Origin: Escherichia phage vB_EcoD_Opt-719
Strand: one strand, 5' to 3'
Length of the DNA: 48,302 nucleotides
Sequence record: OL539451.1
How positions within the stretch are numbered: the first letter of the stretch is position 1; each line of letters opens with the position of its first letter. This document shows, piece after piece, positions 590-46,810 of the stretch. The position numbers were made by a program, and so were the translations under genes. Below the pieces are notes generated by a model. It was not told where the DNA came from. It searched no databases and was given only the letters and a program-made list of their open reading frames with translations.

Positions 590-690
590 AAATACTAAAA
601 TCTATACTGGCATACTACGTCCTTTCTTGCATGGCATTCACTAGCGGCTTTCTTATTGGTGTAATTATTGGAGCAATAAAAAATCTATGA
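586..690 (+). CDS. hypothetical small hydrophobic peptide (34 aa)
   Basis: ATG 586 overlaps upstream stop (ATGA) and its TGA overlaps ATG 687 (ATGA); MKILKSILAYYVLSCMAFTSGFLIGVIIGAIKNL is TM-like; below ORF-track cutoff. Confidence 0.3.
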   Translation: MKILKSILAYYVLSCMAFTSGFLIGVIIGAIKNL

Positions 691-2255
691 ATACATTAGC
701 ATGGGAGGAGATGACGCCAGCCGAAAAGCTGGCAGTTAAGGCGCTATCCACTCACAGCTTCGAGGCATTCCTTCGCGTATGGTTCCAGTTATCGCAGGGT
801 GAGAGATACATCCCTAACTGGCATCATAAATACCTTTGCCGAATCATTGACGAGGTTATTAGTGGGGAGCGCAGGGATACCATCATTAACGTAGCTCCTG
901 GGGCCGGTAAAACCGAGATTACATCTATTCACTTTCCGGTCTACTCAATGATCAGGCTACCAAAGGTTAGGAACCTTAGCTTGTCATTCTCAGACAGTCT
1001 GGTGAAGCGTAACTCCAAGCGTGTTCGCGACCTAATCAAGTCCCCTGAGTTCCAGGAACTATGGCCTTGCAAGTTTGGCACGTGCAAGGATGATGAAATT
1101 CAGGTTCTTGATGAGAGTGGAAAGGTTAGATTCGAAGCTATATCGAAAGCAATTGGCGGTCAGATTACTGGTGCAAGGGGTGGATACATTACAGATAGCT
1201 ACAGCGGCTGCTTGATGCTGGATGACCCCGACAAACCAGACGACATGCTCAGCAAGGTAAGGCGTGAGGCTGTGCACGTTTTACTCAAGAATACCATCCG
1301 CTCACGTAGGGCTAGTAGCGTTAAAGGTAAAGCTACGCCGATTCTGTCAATTCAGCAAAGGCTTCATACGCAGGATTCAACGTGGTTCATGACTTCTGGC
1401 GGTATGGGTATCGACTTTGATGTAGTGAAGATACCAGCGCTGGTTAATGAAGACTATGTGAACGAGCTTCCTGACTGGATTCGTGAGCAGTTCGAGAAGG
1501 ACGTGCTTTCATCTGAATCAGTTGAGCGTGATGGGGTCAGGTACTATAGCTATTTCCCTCAAAAGGAATCCGTGCATGATTTGATGGCAATGTGGGAATC
1601 AGACCCGTACACATTCCTAAGCCAGTACCAACAATCACCAGTAGCTCTAGGTGGAAACCTGATCAACGTCGATTGGTTCGTAAGACTTGATGAGAATAAC
1701 AGGCCGCCAGTCAAGTATGACTACCGATTCATTACTGCCGATACTGCCATGACTACGAAGAGTTATAGCGACTACTCTGTGTTACAGCTGTGGGGTCGTA
1801 AGGGTAACAAGCTTTACCTTCTGGACATGGTAAGAGGTAAGTGGGAAGCGCCTGAGCTTGAGCAAACTCTTCTGGACTTTGAGAGTAAGCACAGAGCCAC
1901 CAGTAAAGCGGACGGTATCTTACGCAAGGTTATTATCGAGAAAAAGGCATCTGGTATCGGTCTTATCCAGTCAGCGGGTCGGACGATGCGAACTCCTATC
2001 GAGCCTTTCGTTCCTGATACAGATAAGTTGACCAGGGTGATGAGCGCATTGCCACAAATTAAGGCGGGTAACGTAATTCTGCCAGACTCTGCTCCATGGC
2101 TTACATCTTTGCTAACTGAGTTCTCAGCATTCACTGCTGATGATTCTCATCCCCATGATGACATTGTGGATACCACAACGATGGCTATCAACTGTGAACT
2201 AAACTTAGCGGACGATCCAAGGGCTAGGTTGATGAGGTTAGCAGGTGTTAGATAG
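687..2255 (+). CDS. terL: terminase large subunit
   Basis: 522 aa; P-loop-like VAPGAGKTE near N-terminus, acidic nuclease-like C-terminal half; sits between terS-like and portal genes. Confidence 0.8.
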   Translation: MNTLAWEEMTPAEKLAVKALSTHSFEAFLRVWFQLSQGERYIPNWHHKYLCRIIDEVISGERRDTIINVAPGAGKTEITSIHFPVYSMIRLPKVRNLSLSFSDSLVKRNSKRVRDLIKSPEFQELWPCKFGTCKDDEIQVLDESGKVRFEAISKAIGGQITGARGGYITDSYSGCLMLDDPDKPDDMLSKVRREAVHVLLKNTIRSRRASSVKGKATPILSIQQRLHTQDSTWFMTSGGMGIDFDVVKIPALVNEDYVNELPDWIREQFEKDVLSSESVERDGVRYYSYFPQKESVHDLMAMWESDPYTFLSQYQQSPVALGGNLINVDWFVRLDENNRPPVKYDYRFITADTAMTTKSYSDYSVLQLWGRKGNKLYLLDMVRGKWEAPELEQTLLDFESKHRATSKADGILRKVIIEKKASGIGLIQSAGRTMRTPIEPFVPDTDKLTRVMSALPQIKAGNVILPDSAPWLTSLLTEFSAFTADDSHPHDDIVDTTTMAINCELNLADDPRARLMRLAGVR

Positions 2256-2269
2256 CACGAATTGCTAAA
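2252..2269 (+). promoter_or_regulatory. promoter-cassette motif copy (ATAGCACGAATTGCTAAA)
   Basis: inverted repeat TAGCA-N5-TGCTA; contains terL TAG stop; followed by GGATGG, TATAAT, A-rich leader and GAGAGGAG RBS before ATG 2325. Confidence 0.5.
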
Positions 2270-2324
2270 GACAATAGCCACGGATGGCATATAATTAACT
2301 CACTTAAACGAGAGGAGATAGTAA

Positions 2325-2681
2325 ATGTTTAAAGCTAAATTTGTAAATTACAAAACACCAGCATCTGGTTATATTGGTATTTTCACTCCTGGTAGGGAGT
2401 ACAAACTAGATGTCATTGAGAATGACAGATATTATAGAACATACGATGATTACGGCGTAGAGGTTAAGTTCAATTCACTTTTTTTAGATAATTATGTTTT
2501 TGAGCGAGTTTCAGATTCCGAGCTGTTTGACATGATTGAGGAGCCAGCAAGCCTAAAGTATTATATCAATGGCAACTTGGTGCAAAAAAGCTACTTCTAC
2601 GAGTTAATTGGCGAGCTAAATGAGGCTGATAGACTTGGCGCCAAAGTGTCTTCAGTCAAATTTGAAATCAAGTTCGAGTAA
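2325..2681 (+). CDS. hypothetical protein (118 aa), moron-like
   Basis: own promoter cassette upstream and rho-independent terminator downstream; inserted between terL and portal. Confidence 0.5.
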   Translation: MFKAKFVNYKTPASGYIGIFTPGREYKLDVIENDRYYRTYDDYGVEVKFNSLFLDNYVFERVSDSELFDMIEEPASLKYYINGNLVQKSYFYELIGELNEADRLGAKVSSVKFEIKFE

Positions 2682-2701
2682 TCAAAACTCTGTGATACAC
2701 T

Positions 2702-2725
2702 AGCCCCTACTCAGGGGCTTTTTTA
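2702..2725 (+). terminator. rho-independent terminator
   Basis: hairpin AGCCCC-loop-GGGGCT followed by TTTTTT. Confidence 0.7.
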
Positions 2726-2738
2726 TTGGAGAAATTAC

Positions 2739-4007
2739 ATGGTAAAAGCAGACAGCTACGCAAACATCTTTCTTAACGGGAGTGATGGTAGCGAGATTTA
2801 CGGAAGGTTTGGCGGCCTTGGCTTAACAGCTCCAGCGCAGCTTGAGCAGCTTTACGTCAGTAGCGCACTGGTTCGTCGAATTATTGATATCGTGCCAGAG
2901 GTTGCACTTGGCGCTGGCTTTAACATTGAGGGTATCGACGATGAAGGTGCTTTCTGGTCGCGCTGGGATGATTTAGACCTTTCAGATAGTGTAATCGACG
3001 CACTGGCGTGGGCAAGATTATACGGTGGAGCTGCTGTAGTGGCAATTGTCAAGGATGGCAGGGCGCTAACTAGCCAGGTTAGGGAGGGAGCTGAACTTGA
3101 AACTATCCGCGTCTACGACCGACAGCAAATTAAGGTTCAGACTCGAGAGGAGAATCCACGTAACGCGCGATTTGGAAAGCCAGTTACCTATCGCATTACG
3201 CCAAATGGTTCGGCCACATTCTACGACGTGCATTACACTCGCTGCCACATCATCGATGGCGAAAGGGTTCCGAACAACCTACGCCGCAACAACGATGGTT
3301 GGGGCGCAAGCGTGCTAACTGGTGACTTAATCGACGCGATTGACGACTATCAGAACTGTGAGAGACTGGCTACTCAGTTACTTCGTCGAAAGCAACAGGC
3401 TGTGTGGAAAGCGAAAGGTTTGGCTGATTTATGCGATGATTCTGATGGATTTGGTGCAGCTCGCTTACGCCTGGCGCAGGTTGATAATAACAGCGGCGTT
3501 GGTCAGGCTATTGGTATTGATGCAGAGAGTGAAGAATATGACGTTCTTAACTCTGACATTGGTGGTATTGATGCATTCTTGAGCCAGAAGTTCGACAGAA
3601 TCGTTGCCCTGAGCGGCATCCATGAAATCATTCTCAAGGCCAAGAATACTGGAGGTGTATCAGCTAGCCAAAACACAGCCCTTGAGACTTTCTATGGTTA
3701 TGTTGACCGCAAGCGCAAGTCAGACCTGCTTCCTTTACTTGGTTTCCTGATTCAATTTATTGTCACTCAGGACGAATGGTCAGTTGAATTTAATCCACTA
3801 TCTCAAGTTAGCGATAAAGATAAATCTGAGATTCTAGAGAAGAACGTTAACTCAGTTTCAGCTCTTGTTGCTGGTGGCGTGATGAATACTGATGAAGCCC
3901 GTGATACACTACGAGCTATTGCGCCAGAGGTTAAGCTGCAAGATGGTGATATTGAGCAAACCGCTCAGGGGAAAACAGTCGAGGAGGTAGTGATTAATGA
4001 AGAGTAA
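2739..4007 (+). CDS. putative portal protein
   Basis: 422-aa ORF directly after terminase region, acidic C-terminus; portal call by position and size, family not verified. Confidence 0.55.
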   Translation: MVKADSYANIFLNGSDGSEIYGRFGGLGLTAPAQLEQLYVSSALVRRIIDIVPEVALGAGFNIEGIDDEGAFWSRWDDLDLSDSVIDALAWARLYGGAAVVAIVKDGRALTSQVREGAELETIRVYDRQQIKVQTREENPRNARFGKPVTYRITPNGSATFYDVHYTRCHIIDGERVPNNLRRNNDGWGASVLTGDLIDAIDDYQNCERLATQLLRRKQQAVWKAKGLADLCDDSDGFGAARLRLAQVDNNSGVGQAIGIDAESEEYDVLNSDIGGIDAFLSQKFDRIVALSGIHEIILKAKNTGGVSASQNTALETFYGYVDRKRKSDLLPLLGFLIQFIVTQDEWSVEFNPLSQVSDKDKSEILEKNVNSVSALVAGGVMNTDEARDTLRAIAPEVKLQDGDIEQTAQGKTVEEVVINEE

Positions 4008-5106
4008 AATGCGTTATGACAGCGCTAAAGTAAAAGCCCGTTTCGATGAGAACGGGTTTCTAGTGGACACTCCAGTGGTTGCTCGTGTTGGTGTTCAAAC
4101 ATACTACATGCCAGATGGCTCAGAGCGCCGAGAGTTCCGACCAGCATCAGAGGTGTTTAAATCCGATTCCCTGCAAAGCTATCAGGGCAAGCCGCTTACG
4201 CTTGGTCATGTAGTTGTTAATTCAGATAACGCCAAGGATGTTGTAGTTGGAGCAGTATCTGGTGCAGCTATGCGTCAGGATTCTACAGTTGTCGTTCCTC
4301 TAACAGTTTACGATAAGCAGGCAATAGAAAAGGCTAAGTCTGGCGTTGCTGGTGAGCTATCGGTTGGCTATAACACTGTTGATATTGAGTCTCCTGGCTG
4401 GGGTAGTAACGAAACGGGTGAGTATAAGCTTGATGGAGAGTACGCAAGCCAGGATGATATCCCTGCTGATTGGGTACGCTTTGATGCCCTGCAAACAAAC
4501 ATCGTTGTGAACCACATTGCTCTGGTATATAAAGGCCGCGCGCAAGTAGCTAAACTGAATCTGGACGCGGAACAGGAAAACCCGTATACTGATACCGTTC
4601 AATCAAATAAAGAGGATAAATTGATGATTAAGATTAAACTGGATGGCGAGCAGGAGTTCGAAATCGCCCCGGAAGTTGCTAAGCACATCGAAGCTGTTAA
4701 AGCTGATGCAGAACAGGCAAAAGCAAAAGCTGACACCCTTGAAGCTGAGCGTGACGCACTGAAAGCTAAAGTTGATGGCATTCCTGCTGAAATTGAATCT
4801 GCCGTAGCGAAAGCTAAAGCTGATGCTGACGAACTGGCCGCTCTGGTTGCTACCGCTGCAGAAGCTGGCGTTAAAGCTGATGGTATGGATGCTAAAGCAA
4901 TCAAAGTTGCTTACGTTAAAGAAGTATCCGGCCTTGACGTTGCAGAGAAATCTGACGCATACATCGATGCGGCCTTTGATATCGCTAAAGATAGTGATAA
5001 AATGGCTGAAGTCCGCAAAGCAGTTGTTGCTGCGGATAAATCTGACGCTGCCGACGCGCCTAAGAAATTAGACCCGCGCGCTCGCCTCGCTAAATTGAAA
5101 AAATAA
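3997..5106 (+). CDS. putative head maturation protease/scaffolding protein
   Basis: 369 aa; globular N-terminal domain then long Ala/Lys/Glu/Asp-rich coiled-coil-like C-terminus; GAGGAGG RBS; between portal and capsid genes. Confidence 0.45.
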   Translation: MKSKMRYDSAKVKARFDENGFLVDTPVVARVGVQTYYMPDGSERREFRPASEVFKSDSLQSYQGKPLTLGHVVVNSDNAKDVVVGAVSGAAMRQDSTVVVPLTVYDKQAIEKAKSGVAGELSVGYNTVDIESPGWGSNETGEYKLDGEYASQDDIPADWVRFDALQTNIVVNHIALVYKGRAQVAKLNLDAEQENPYTDTVQSNKEDKLMIKIKLDGEQEFEIAPEVAKHIEAVKADAEQAKAKADTLEAERDALKAKVDGIPAEIESAVAKAKADADELAALVATAAEAGVKADGMDAKAIKVAYVKEVSGLDVAEKSDAYIDAAFDIAKDSDKMAEVRKAVVAADKSDAADAPKKLDPRARLAKLKK

Positions 5107-16335: not shown

Positions 16336-16339
16336 ACTA

Positions 16340-16361
16340 AGACCCTACGGGGTCTTTTTTA
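16340..16361 (+). terminator. rho-independent terminator
   Basis: hairpin AGACCC-TACG-GGGTCT followed by TTTTTT. Confidence 0.7.
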
Positions 16362-16374
16362 TTGGAGAAATATC

Positions 16375-17149: not shown

Positions 17150-17242
17150 ATGAAATTATTGTGTGCTTATTTGATATTTATATTTTTGTCAATGTTTGGA
17201 TTGTCATTAACATTAATTCTCAATATGGCTGGTGTTTTATGA
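17150..17242 (+). CDS. hypothetical small hydrophobic peptide (30 aa)
   Basis: AAGGAG RBS 6 nt upstream of ATG 17150; stop overlaps ATG 17239 (ATGA); MKLLCAYLIFIFLSMFGLSLTLILNMAGVL. Confidence 0.3.
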   Translation: MKLLCAYLIFIFLSMFGLSLTLILNMAGVL

Positions 17243-17985
17243 TTACACCTAAAGTTAAACTAGAAATATTTCGCCACGCCAACGAGGTTTACCCGCAGGA
17301 ATCTTGCGGGGTTGTAACTCAAAAGGGAATGGCGCAGAAATATCACAGGATTACCAATGTATCCAAAACTCCTGAGCAATCATTCATTCTTGACCCAGCA
17401 GAATTCATGGAGATTTCAGATAGTGAACAAATTGTTTACGTGGTTCATTCTCATACTGGTGACGGTGCCACTACTCGCCCTAGCGCTGCAGACATTTGTA
17501 GTTGTAATGAGTGCGAAATTCCTTATGTCATTGTTAGCATTCCCGAAGGCGATTTGCGAATTATTGAACCTAGCACAATGCCTTTAGCTGGCAGGCCGTG
17601 GGGTTTGGGCAGCTTCGATTGTTGGAGTTTGGTCATGGAATTTCACAAGCTACACGGCGTTAAGCTGAACGACTACCGAGTTGATTACCAGTGGTGGACG
17701 AATGAATACCCTGACAATATCTACGATGATAATTGGCAACTTGAAGGGTTTGAGTTAGTTCGAGGTAATGATATTCCCATTGGCTCAATGGTTATGATGC
17801 AGATTCAAAGCGAGAAGACAAACCACGCTGCAATCTACATTGGTGATAATAAAATCCTGCACCATTTATATGGTAAGATGAGTAAGGTTGATTTGTACGG
17901 TGATTACTATCGTGAGCGGACTGTGCGAATCGTAAGGCATAAAGATTTACCGGAGGATGCTGGTTATGACCCAGAACGTGATTGA
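17239..17985 (+). CDS. tail tip assembly protein (K-like; JAMM/MPN plus NlpC/P60-like)
   Basis: JAMM-like HSHTGDGATTRPSAAD and catalytic-Cys-like FDCWSL motifs; start at ATG 17239 (track GTG 17161). Confidence 0.65.
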   Translation: MITPKVKLEIFRHANEVYPQESCGVVTQKGMAQKYHRITNVSKTPEQSFILDPAEFMEISDSEQIVYVVHSHTGDGATTRPSAADICSCNECEIPYVIVSIPEGDLRIIEPSTMPLAGRPWGLGSFDCWSLVMEFHKLHGVKLNDYRVDYQWWTNEYPDNIYDDNWQLEGFELVRGNDIPIGSMVMMQIQSEKTNHAAIYIGDNKILHHLYGKMSKVDLYGDYYRERTVRIVRHKDLPEDAGYDPERD

Positions 17986-34146: not shown

Positions 34147-34470
34147 ATGAAAAAGTTAATTATCGCAACTATCCTGATGGCGGCAGCAAGTGTTAATGCA
34201 GACGCGAAAGCTAACAACTGTCATGACATCGTTCAGTACGCTTACAACCTTGCAGTTAACGAATGGGGCGCTAACAAAACTGATGTGGTTAATGCTAAAA
34301 CTGTCAGTCTCTACCTGGATACATGTGAAATTGCTATCAAATCACGAGGCACTTACACTAAAGATGAACTTACAGCTAAGTATGATTCAGTAAAAACAAG
34401 CACTAAATCAGAGATGGATGTTCAGGATATTGTAATCCTTGTATCTAGAATCTCTTACGATAAGGCATAA
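34147..34470 (+). CDS. secreted/periplasmic protein (107 aa), hypothetical
   Basis: Sec-type signal peptide MKKLIIATILMAAASVNA with AxA cleavage site; start ATG 34147 (track TTG 34096). Confidence 0.5.
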   Translation: MKKLIIATILMAAASVNADAKANNCHDIVQYAYNLAVNEWGANKTDVVNAKTVSLYLDTCEIAIKSRGTYTKDELTAKYDSVKTSTKSEMDVQDIVILVSRISYDKA

Positions 34471-37158: not shown

Positions 37159-37176
37159 ATAGCACGAATTGCTAAA
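37157..37176 (+). promoter_or_regulatory. promoter-cassette motif copy
   Basis: AAATAGCACGAATTGCTAAA; TATAGT and CATCGAAACAAACGAGAGGA leader downstream. Confidence 0.5.
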
Positions 37177-37234: not shown

Positions 37235-37420
37235 ATGGCTAAGTTCACACAATCAGATGCACAAATCGAAGTTAAAGATGTTGGTTTTGGTAAGGCATTC
37301 AAGATTGCGCAGGCGTACGGGTCTAGCGAAGAAGATGTGAAAGTTGACACTATTAACCTTACTGCTAAGAATGCACGTGAGATCGCTTATGCAATCCTTG
37401 CAGCACTTGGAGAAAAATGA
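37235..37420 (+). CDS. hypothetical protein (61 aa)
   Basis: GAGAGGA RBS; first cistron after promoter cassette. Confidence 0.45.
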   Translation: MAKFTQSDAQIEVKDVGFGKAFKIAQAYGSSEEDVKVDTINLTAKNAREIAYAILAALGEK

Positions 37421-37421
37421 A

Positions 37422-37595
37422 ATGACTAAATTATTTTGCGTAATCAACAAATCAAAAACTCTGCCGTTCACTGTAAACAATCCGTATAGCGCTGAGTATC
37501 AGGGTGAAGGAAACTACAAGATTTATGGCGATGACATGACATGGATTTTTGCGCCAATCGATGGAGCTTTGTTGGAATTCATTATCGCAGACTAA
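37422..37595 (+). CDS. hypothetical protein (57 aa)
   Basis: ATG 2 nt after upstream TGA; same frame as track ORF 37344..37595. Confidence 0.35.
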   Translation: MTKLFCVINKSKTLPFTVNNPYSAEYQGEGNYKIYGDDMTWIFAPIDGALLEFIIAD

Positions 37596-41683: not shown

Positions 41684-41923
41684 TTATCTCACCTCATCAA
41701 AAGTGGCGATTCCAGGGATGAACATACCAACCTTCCAGCCAGCTATAGCAATCCACCCCGAATCGTGCTTGTGCGGACGCTCAGCGCCATTAATCACCCA
41801 TTCGTTCGGGATTGTCTTACCGTTAATGATAAGCGGCTCAGCGTCGTATACAGAGTCTTTTACGAACGGTGTTAAAACCTTCTTATCCGTGCTTTGGATA
41901 ACGTTAGTGCAGCGAATCTTCAT
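41684..41923 (-). CDS. hypothetical protein (79 aa)
   Basis: GAGGT RBS; overlaps stop of upstream acidic gene. Confidence 0.45.
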   Translation of the reverse strand: MKIRCTNVIQSTDKKVLTPFVKDSVYDAEPLIINGKTIPNEWVINGAERPHKHDSGWIAIAGWKVGMFIPGIATFDEVR

Positions 41924-42138
41924 GCTAATACCTCGATTTCTTCTTCCGTAACGCTGAATTCTTCACCTTCATAAACAGCCGTGATGCCATCAATTACAAC
42001 ATCGCGCTTCGCATCAATGAAGTACTCACCTTCAAGTTCAAACACCTCAACCTCTTCACCAACTTCATAGCCCATCTCAGCCAGGCTTAATGCATCTTCG
42101 TCAAACTTGATTTCGTTGTTGATAATAATCGCTTTCAT
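41920..42138 (-). CDS. hypothetical acidic protein (72 aa), paralog of 46598..46810
   Basis: start ATG 42138 with GAGGAG RBS (track TTG 42177); MKAIIINNEIKFDED...GYEVGEEVEV versus MKIKIIDVDYVTDDE...GFEIGDVVEV. Confidence 0.45.
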   Translation of the reverse strand: MKAIIINNEIKFDEDALSLAEMGYEVGEEVEVFELEGEYFIDAKRDVVIDGITAVYEGEEFSVTEEEIEVLA

Positions 42139-46597: not shown

Positions 46598-46810
46598 ATG
46601 AAAATTAAAATTATCGATGTTGATTATGTTACTGATGACGAGTCTATCACGCTTCGCGAATGCGGCTTCGAGATTGGCGATGTTGTAGAGGTGTCTGGTA
46701 AGTACAACAACGGAGAGCTTTCAATCCAGGCAATCCGTGAGACTGATTTTGTTAATGTTGGCAATGAGGTTAGTATAAGCGAATTTGAATATGAGGTAGT
46801 GGAAGAATGA
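46598..46810 (+). CDS. hypothetical acidic protein (70 aa), paralog of 41920..42138
   Basis: GGAAGAAG RBS; MKIKIIDVDYVTDDE...GFEIGDVVEV...EYEVVEE. Confidence 0.45.
   Translation: MKIKIIDVDYVTDDESITLRECGFEIGDVVEVSGKYNNGELSIQAIRETDFVNVGNEVSISEFEYEVVEE

Follow-up and report, generated by a model that had tools for sequence, protein, structure and literature searches.

Between terL and the portal gene of Escherichia phage vB_EcoD_Opt-719 (sequence record OL539451.1) lies a small open reading frame (ORF) that encodes 118 amino acids (aa). The DNA analysed here, termed the window, is 48,302 nucleotides (nt) long and comes from a phage of the Rogunavirinae, a T1-like group within the Drexlerviridae. 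The window is 100% identical over the compared stretch to Klebsiella phage vB_KpnD_Opt-79 and to Escherichia phages Phleasolo and Sadiya, and 82–89% identical to Sd1, JK06, Rogue1, the AHP24 group and e4/1c, which are all Rogunavirinae too. A preliminary description of the locus, made from the sequence alone, had presented the ORF as a moron-like accessory gene with its own promoter and terminator. Homologues of this gene are found at three junctions, termed slots: the terL–portal junction and two tail slots, gpM–gpL and gpL–gpK. The features of the terL–portal slot in the window are listed below.

687–2255 (+): terL (Terminase_6C, PHROG 38)
2252–2269 (+): Drexlerviridae direct-repeat (DR) box ATAGCACGAATTGCTAAA, 18 nt, with zero mismatches to the ATAGCACnnnTTGnTAAA core and to the consensus aaATAGCACnnnTTGnTAAAA of phage TLS
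2268–2295 (+): predicted sigma-70-like promoter core from a scan, AAGACA (2268–2273), 16-nt spacer and TATAAT (2290–2295), 10/12 matches
2296–2324 (+): leader CACTTAAACGAGAGGAG containing GAGGAG (2312–2317), conserved across slots
2325–2681 (+): accessory ORF from the ORF list, ATG start, 118 aa, PHROG 14592 family
2328–2535 (+): block coding for the N-domain, type N2, exchanged as a module; nearest to tail-slot paralogues
2536–2681 (+): block coding for the end of the linker and the C-domain, type C1, identical to Sd1 at the nucleotide level; the type of the terL–portal slot
2702–2724 (+): predicted rho-independent terminator, stem-loop 2702–2719 and T-run 2719–2724, from scan, fold and conservation
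2719–2741 (+): TTTTTTATTGGAG block with the T-run, the portal ribosome-binding site GGAG (2728–2731) and the portal start codon (2739), from repeat count and tail-slot recurrence
2739–4007 (+): portal gene (Phage_portal_3)

The accessory ORF begins with ATG and is preceded, 7 nt upstream, by the ribosome-binding site GAGGAG. Its product matches the PHROG 14592 profile with E = 3e-25, and residues 1–118 align with positions 1–116 of 116, so that the earlier statement that the protein has no recognisable motif no longer holds. A profile search yields 154 homologues; those listed are mostly 104–145 aa long, and many of them lie on contigs of ~45–50 kb. A chance ORF in an intergenic spacer would also be short, AT-rich and devoid of a curated domain match, as this one is. 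That explanation is already refuted by the conservation data, and the full-length profile match, the 154 homologues, the conserved columns, the confident AlphaFold2 (AF2) models and the strong, well-spaced ribosome-binding site leave it virtually no probability. The ORF was rightly taken for a real gene. Its guanine plus cytosine (GC) content is 36.1%, compared to 47.7% for terL and 47.9% for portal, which places it among the lowest 1.4% of 357-nt windows by GC; the insert is compositionally foreign. No paralogue of the protein was found in the window by tblastn.

The size of the terL–portal gap in other phages was read with a chimeric query consisting of the last 120 aa of the terL product and the first 120 aa of the portal protein, for which the span of the match reports the gap. 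Close relatives were counted in the 60 best records of this query, and the distant set is an even sample down the remaining ~870 records. Among the close relatives, ~21 distinct phages have a gene-sized insert (span 1172–1230 nt), ~17 have an empty junction (761–779 nt), and two, e4/1c and IME542, have an HNH endonuclease gene. The terL–portal gap is polymorphic: it may be empty, hold a gene of this family, or hold an HNH endonuclease gene. In the distant Drexlerviridae sampled, which include T1, Shfl1 and TLS-like, Klebsiella and Citrobacter phages, the span is 705–805 nt and there is no room for a gene, as expected from the earlier claim that terL and portal are normally adjacent. Homologues of the accessory ORF occupy the gap in Sd1, JK06, CEB_EC3a, AN_ECEAS and Rtp. 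This distribution means that the gene is accessory and confined to Rtp-like and JK06-like coliphages. It is not universal among relatives, and no structural role has been demonstrated for it.

The boundaries of the insertion or deletion are precise and fall at stop codons. In the empty-site phages Sf12, phiKP26, C119, Rogue1, AHP24 and others, the aligned C-terminal segment of the terL product and N-terminal segment of the portal protein are 94–97% identical to those of the window, and the terminator comes directly after the terL stop. In AHP24 and its group, the terL TAA is followed by TCATGATAAACT, the shared hairpin, TTTTTTATTGGAG and the portal ATG. The sequence TAATCA...TGATAAACT with the shared hairpin lies 3′ of terL in empty AHP24, and the same arrangement lies 3′ of the stop codon of the insert in JK06.

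Two database records are irregular at this locus. An intermediate gap size in phiJLA23 was rejected as an assembly artefact full of N; its record (NC_047740.1) shows a stretch of N and a duplication of the end of terL at 490–560, in the terL–portal gap. In the JK06 record, terL and portal are each broken into several ORFs.

Positions 2252–2701 would then constitute an optional, horizontally exchanged cassette of Rtp-like and JK06-like T1-type phages (Braunvirinae, Rogunavirinae), inserted exactly at the terL stop codon and 5′ of a resident terL terminator. Taken as a whole, an optional exchanged cassette that carries a DR-type promoter and encodes a dispensable accessory protein is the best explanation, and a likely one.

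The direct-repeat box and the resident terminator

A 21-nt direct repeat with the consensus aaATAGCACnnnTTGnTAAAA has been reported in the re-annotation of phage TLS, where it lies ~76 nt 5′ of start codons, and it occurs in T1, Rtp and Rogue1 as well (PMC11447400). Its function was left open, as a stoperator, an enhancer site or an UP element (PMC11447400). The copy at 2252–2269 of the window belongs to the “GAA” subgroup, contains the terL stop TAG (2253–2255) and lies 73 nt 5′ of the accessory ATG on the same strand. It therefore resembles the TLS repeats in its perfect consensus match, its orientation along transcription and its distance to the start codon. The TLS paper (PMC11447400), in contrast to the present analysis, links the repeats neither to optional cassettes nor to the terL–portal junction.

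The window contains 14 copies of the ATAGCACnnnTTGnTAAA family with at most one mismatch, compared to 0.02 expected. They begin at 2252, 23463(-), 26263, 31668, 34064, 35606, 36894, 37159, 41098(-), 41534(-), 42211(-), 43867, 45519 and 46524, on the plus strand unless marked. Every copy is oriented along transcription, and the sub-types GAA, TTT and TAA occur as they do in TLS. Most of the 14 copies have a TATAGT/TATAAT-like -10 element at ~38 nt from the start of the box and a conserved TCATCGAAACGA-like leader on their 3′ side, and for 13 of them a start codon follows 67–85 nt 3′ of the repeat. It was also observed that the box often provides the stop codon of the upstream gene, as the TAG of ATAG or the TAA of CTAAA.

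Within the structural block, which extends from 74 to ~23000, no copy occurs other than that at 2252. Ten other DR-preceded genes were scanned, and they encode an Erf-like annealing protein, two helicases, six small proteins of unknown function and one protein without a PHROG match; none of the ten has a structural annotation. In other genomes, 12 further occupied loci were examined, and each has a DR box ~73 nt 5′ of the accessory gene; at the empty AHP24 site the box is missing. The leader block ...AAACGAGAGGAG is conserved 5′ of homologues in all three slots.

Some of the other DR-preceded genes of the window have features of their own. At 34147–34470 (+), a 107-aa ORF has an N-terminus resembling a signal peptide, MKKLIIATILMAAASVNADA, and matches no PHROG at E ≤1e-5; its product could be an accessory protein that is secreted or periplasmic. 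The ORFs at 46598–46810 (+) and 41920–42138 (-) encode two paralogues of 70–72 aa that belong to PHROG 5684 (unknown function), and each of them is DR-preceded.

The promoter was previously described as complete. The DR box and a consensus -10 hexamer, TATAAT, are indeed in place, and it is the -35 hexamer that is weak and not conserved. Since matches to promoter hexamers occur at chance level throughout the region (16 found, compared to 10.4 +/- 3.5), the case for a promoter rests on the DR family and on the geometry of the -10 element. Judging from the sequence, host RNA polymerase would start ~7 nt 3′ of TATAAT, near 2302. The DR box would then sit at about -50 to -33, which may make it an UP-element-like or class-II-activator-like site. 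Because this type of promoter is shared with recombination, replication and small genes behind the other DR copies, the accessory gene would be co-regulated with them, and not with the surrounding packaging and head genes. Such an arrangement would give the gene independent transcription. A literature search found no transcriptome data for Drexlerviridae.

The predicted terminator consists of the strong hairpin AGCCCCT-ACTC-AGGGGCT, with a 4-nt loop, followed by six T. The 54-nt stretch around it folds at -18.2 kcal/mol with z = -4.05; across the region, terminator-like matches are at chance level (7, compared to 6.3 +/- 2.4). In all relatives for which the junction was read, an identical or near-identical hairpin lies 3′ of terL; these include the empty AHP24 and phiJLA23. 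Since it is retained in empty sites, the terminator is part of the backbone at terL–portal and is not specific to the insert. The unit at this junction, earlier described as self-contained, is only partly so, its terminator being resident. Most transcripts would stop at the hairpin at 2702–2724.

The sequence that follows the hairpin is also repeated. The exact 13-mer TTTTTTATTGGAG occurs in 3 copies in the window, compared to 0.01 expected. It is found 3′ of the cassette in the tail slots of phiEB49 and of the homologue P0114, and, with one T fewer or more, in those of SU57 and JulesPiccard. In the tail slots, the same hairpin, GGTCAATCGAGAGATTGGCC, a T-run and ATTGGAG come after the gene at both junctions, gpL–gpK and gpM–gpL, which suggests that the whole promoter-gene-terminator unit moved.

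At the gpM–gpL junction of the window itself, 16336–16374 (+) contains TAAACTAAG, the hairpin GACCCTACGGGTC and TTTTTTATTGGAG, which together form the 3′ module seen behind the cassette elsewhere. This junction looks like an unoccupied slot.

Homologues and HNH genes at the three junctions

Homologues of the accessory gene lie between gpL-like and gpK-like tail genes in phiEB49 (gp37), in SU57 and in one metagenomic contig. JulesPiccard, which carries two copies of the family gene, has one at the gpM–gpL junction and an HNH gene at gpL–gpK. In all slots, the homologues are always found behind a DR repeat. A scan of IMG/VR for further loci returned four, all of them from isolates that were already known.

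HNH genes use the same places. An HNH gene is listed at gpL–gpK in the published gene table of phage DTL, and the HNH genes of the structural region are DR-preceded where this was checked. As a separate observation, HNH genes are frequent at the terS–terL, TMP–gpM, gpL–gpK and terL–portal junctions (loci L003, L005, L007, L009, L014 and L015).

The gpL–gpK junction of the window has a small insert of another kind. At 17151–17243 (+) lies a 93-nt mini-ORF with its own GGAG ribosome-binding site, which encodes a strongly hydrophobic peptide of 30 aa, MKLLCAYLIFIFLSMFGLSLTLILNMAGVL. The junction is ~90 nt shorter in e4/1c, AKS96, C119, Sd1, JK06 and others, and the insert seems to be unique to the trio Opt-79, Phleasolo and Sadiya.

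The shared junctions raise the question of whether the accessory gene is itself a selfish or homing-related element, that is, cargo, a remnant or an immunity determinant of the HNH homing endonucleases, whose product does nothing but occupy or protect the site. DR-preceded HNH genes do lie in the same slots in e4/1c and IME542 (terL–portal) and in JulesPiccard and DTL (gpL–gpK), the repeat also stands 5′ of HNH genes elsewhere in the structural region, and the boundaries at stop codons are as precise as this explanation would have them. The protein itself speaks against it. No His or Cys is invariant among 118 sequences, there is no HNH, GIY-YIG or LAGLIDADG signature and no Pfam match, and the conservation of the protein over 154 homologues, alongside a two-domain model that is well folded, points to selection on the protein. 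Moreover, no HNH gene lies next to the cassette in this window. A homing-related origin is accordingly improbable, and since the protein has no nuclease features it is a weaker alternative than the virion-associated role considered below.

An HNH-like reading of the beta-beta-alpha part of the C-domain was also considered and was rejected, as none of its His or Cys residues is conserved in the 118 sequences.

Protein family, predicted fold and domain exchange

The family is conserved at few positions and varies in its domain content. Among 118 aligned members, 3 columns are invariant (Y26, N82 and F91) and 10 are near-invariant (≥90%). An exhaustive HMMER search over 1.84 billion cluster representatives contributed nothing further except N-only fragments, N-N-C tandem forms and proteins with DUF6501-/DUF7244-like small-repeat arrays. 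Within the family, P0017 (198 aa) and P0137 (216 aa) have two tandem N-domains and one C-domain, and P0135, P0139 and P0140 are N-domain-only proteins of ~85–95 aa. No match to the accessory protein was found in Pfam, NCBIfam or PADLOC (the latter two at E up to 1). Searches of PDB sequences with the full and C-domain profiles gave just spurious summed matches to designed repeat proteins.

An AF2 model of the full protein has a mean predicted local distance difference test score (pLDDT) of 83.6. In this model, residues 1–62 form a five-stranded SH3-like barrel, residues 63–76 a disordered acidic linker, and residues 77–118 a mini-domain made of a beta-hairpin, a helix and a strand. For the N-domain, Foldseek finds weak SH3 matches in the PDB (E ~0.2, target-normalised template modelling score ~0.6), and structural matches in BFVD are uncharacterised phage proteins, some of them 55–70 aa long, among these a DUF7244 protein. 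The C-domain alone (46 aa) is modelled with a pLDDT of 92.7, and Foldseek finds no structural relative for it in the PDB, all E-values being above 4. Structure prediction, which had been proposed as a check on the protein, thus yields an SH3-like N-domain on weak matches and a C-domain without a structural relative. The family is mildly acidic, with a median isoelectric point of 4.9, and no signal peptide or membrane segment is obvious by eye in the accessory protein, for which no predictor was run. The product is predicted to be a soluble, mildly acidic protein of ~14 kDa.

DUF7244, a stand-alone SH3 protein beside the lysis cassette of Drexlerviridae, has been described in the KanT1 paper (PMC13164509). 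Sub-threshold matches to DUF7244 are given by 29 of the 118 family members (best E = 5.9e-5), and the accessory protein itself has no match to it in Pfam even at E up to 10 (gathering threshold 27 bits). Direct homology to the DUF7244 protein of the window or to a neighbouring 61-aa protein was rejected, with hhalign probabilities of 3% and 1%. The modelled SH3-like fold appears to resemble that of DUF7244, as a similar fold without membership of the family. Like the DUF7244 protein of KanT1 (PMC13164509), the accessory protein is predicted to have a small SH3-like barrel and is encoded, in the same phage family, by a “shell” gene, one that is not universal. It differs in its additional linker and C-domain, in its genomic positions and in having no link to lysis genes.

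The window has a true stand-alone SH3 gene of the DUF7244 type at about 37422–37595 (+), with a Pfam E-value of 1.8e-27. In a small operon that follows the DR at 37159 it comes second, after 37235–37420, as described for T1 and KanT1, and it lies just 5′ of the apparent lysis-gene region.

Alignment of the window with Sd1 reveals three levels of similarity. Identity is ~88% in the promoter and leader, drops to ~45% across the N-domain block (~2328–2535), and is 100% from 2536 onwards, terminator included, up to the portal start. The N-domain of the window scores 116–117 against the tail-slot proteins of phiEB49 and SU57 compared to 38–51 against terL-slot proteins, while the scores of its C-domain have the opposite pattern and favour the terL-slot proteins. 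The C-domains of the family are of two types: C1, ending in ..KFE[IV]KFE, in the terL–portal slot, and C2, ending in ..FIDFEV.FE, in the tail slots. There are also two main types of N-domain, N1 and N2, and most members combine them as N1-C1 or N2-C2. The N2-C1 combination is found in the clade of the window (the window, P0002, P0003, P0004 and P0077), and N1-C2 in P0087, P0104, P0108 and P0114.

By these comparisons, the gene in the window is a chimera of a tail-slot-like N-domain and a terL-slot-like C-domain. The pattern is most simply read as recombination, in which one crossover lay in the DR and leader that the copies share and another in the linker. The C-type may track the slot because the 5′ homology is common to all slots while the 3′ flank is specific to each.

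Possible function, comparison with known systems and significance

The terL–portal copy in phiEB49 (3801–4132 of locus L013) is frameshifted in the A-run of the linker, and this yields a 68-aa ORF for the N-domain (Gp57) and a 34-aa ORF for the C-domain. The same kind of frameshift variant is found in P0133, which is an independent assembly. The split could come from sequencing error, pseudogenisation or slippage, and it is compatible with a non-essential gene. The occurrence of N-only and N-N-C variants was counted in the same direction. The accessory gene is probably dispensable.

With regard to the two domains, the SH3-like N-domain, which is variable and exchangeable, would bind a variable partner, and the small beta-beta-alpha-beta C-domain, which is conserved and to which a flexible linker tethers the N-domain, would anchor or oligomerise the protein. 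The best guess is that the product is a dispensable accessory factor which binds a variable target of the host or of a competitor, and that it is not a core part of the virion. This is the weakest step of the proposed explanation.

Several observations weigh against this explanation. At the level of transcription, the -35 hexamer is poor and unconserved in a region where hexamer matches are at chance level, and the DR box could instead be an inhibitory “stoperator”, as the TLS authors consider (PMC11447400). At the level of the protein, all three slots are inside virion-morphogenesis modules, and the C-type follows the head-side or tail-side position of the slot, which would also fit a structural partner specific to each module. 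In addition, no target is suggested by the Pfam, NCBIfam and PADLOC searches or by the structure search with the C-domain.

A virion-associated accessory protein is the main alternative, and the position of all three slots in morphogenesis modules counts in its favour. In this case, the product would be a decoration near the head or portal when encoded at terL–portal, and a tail-tip accessory when encoded in the tail slots; the C-domain would dock to a partner of the module and the N-domain would be displayed, for example towards surface glycans. A virion role agrees with the correlation of C-type with location while N-domains exchange, and decoration and adhesin proteins typically combine a variable exposed domain with an anchor that is conserved. 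Furthermore, PHROG 14592 and several RefSeq or Pharokka-style records carry the label “virion structural protein”. The original GenBank entries, however, read just hypothetical, gp37, JK_35P or rtp22. No proteomic source for the label was found; the ACG-M12 paper contains no proteomics, and the phiEB49 and Rtp papers were outside the scope of that search. The same RefSeq label also sits on JK_34, a fragment of the JK06 portal, and for this reason it appears to be generic.

Other findings also count against a virion role. The gene is missing from sister phages with flanks that are 94–97% identical, the phiEB49 copy is frameshifted, and the DR-type promoter precedes non-structural genes elsewhere. 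The link between C-type and slot, for its part, is also explained by the mechanics of recombination, given the shared 5′ homology and the slot-specific 3′ flank. A virion-associated protein is therefore unlikely, though less so than a homing-related element, and a dispensable factor outside the core virion is preferred.

The preliminary description compared the cassette to morons. In the concept associated with Juhala and Hendrix, morons are reportedly promoter-gene-terminator units that lie between conserved late genes of lambdoid phages. The cassette in the window is likewise a gene-sized insert between genes that are adjacent in relatives, with a promoter-like element predicted on its 5′ side and a terminator on its 3′ side, a deviant base composition (36% compared to 48% GC) and a sporadic distribution. 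Its differences are that it is carried by a virulent phage, with no prophage expression or benefit to a lysogen, that its predicted promoter is the repeated DR element of the phage family itself and not a generic foreign sigma-70 promoter, and that its terminator at terL–portal is resident and was not brought by the insert. T1-like phages are generally regarded as virulent, and SU57 has been described as such. The term “moron-like” is preferred because a strict, prophage-expressed moron cannot apply to a virulent phage. In this qualified sense the comparison is apt for a gene that is AT-rich, present in some close relatives and absent from others, and placed behind the repeat box of the family.

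A second comparison is with the PeSLs (promoter-early stem-loops) of T4-type phages, which are said to have been described by Arbiol et al. in 2010 as mobile regulatory cassettes. As in PeSLs, repeated promoter and stem-loop sequences bracket optional ORFs and provide short homologies for shuffling between positions. The ends of the cassette are PeSL-like in that the DR, -10 and leader on the 5′ side and the AAACTAG-hairpin-TTTTTTATTGGAG module on the 3′ side recur at three slots and at one “empty” junction. Unlike PeSLs, they belong to a different sequence family and phage family, repeat-mediated recombination is here deduced from mosaic boundaries, and shuffling also takes place within the gene, at the linker. 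Compared with free-standing HNH homing endonuclease genes, the accessory gene shares the slots, the preceding DR and the sporadic distribution, while its product has no nuclease motif and no similarity to these enzymes in sequence or fold.

A broader proposal can be built on these modules, which is possible but doubtful. The DR/-10/leader and AAACTAG-hairpin-TTTTTTATTGGAG modules may form a shuffling system specific to the Drexlerviridae, analogous to the PeSLs of T4, that moves whole promoter-gene-terminator units between safe-harbour junctions of the late operons and swaps the SH3-like domain by a second crossover in the linker. The family would then consist of diversifying effectors against host or competitor targets, or of displayed adhesins, and each genome would carry one or two paralogues.

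The general interest of the biology of this protein is modest, and the database label “virion structural protein” is best treated as unverified. At the terL–portal, gpM–gpL and gpL–gpK junctions, T1-like phages offer natural safe harbours where a predicted expression signal is already in place, and these could serve in the engineering of such phages. The locus illustrates, cleanly and with sharp limits, how an optional gene is carried by T1-like phages: the unit is inserted precisely at a stop codon, behind the repeat box of the family and in front of a terminator. It also shows domain-level recombination inside such a cassette. Through it, the so far unexplained DR repeats of the Drexlerviridae are now tied to accessory cassettes, including those with HNH genes.

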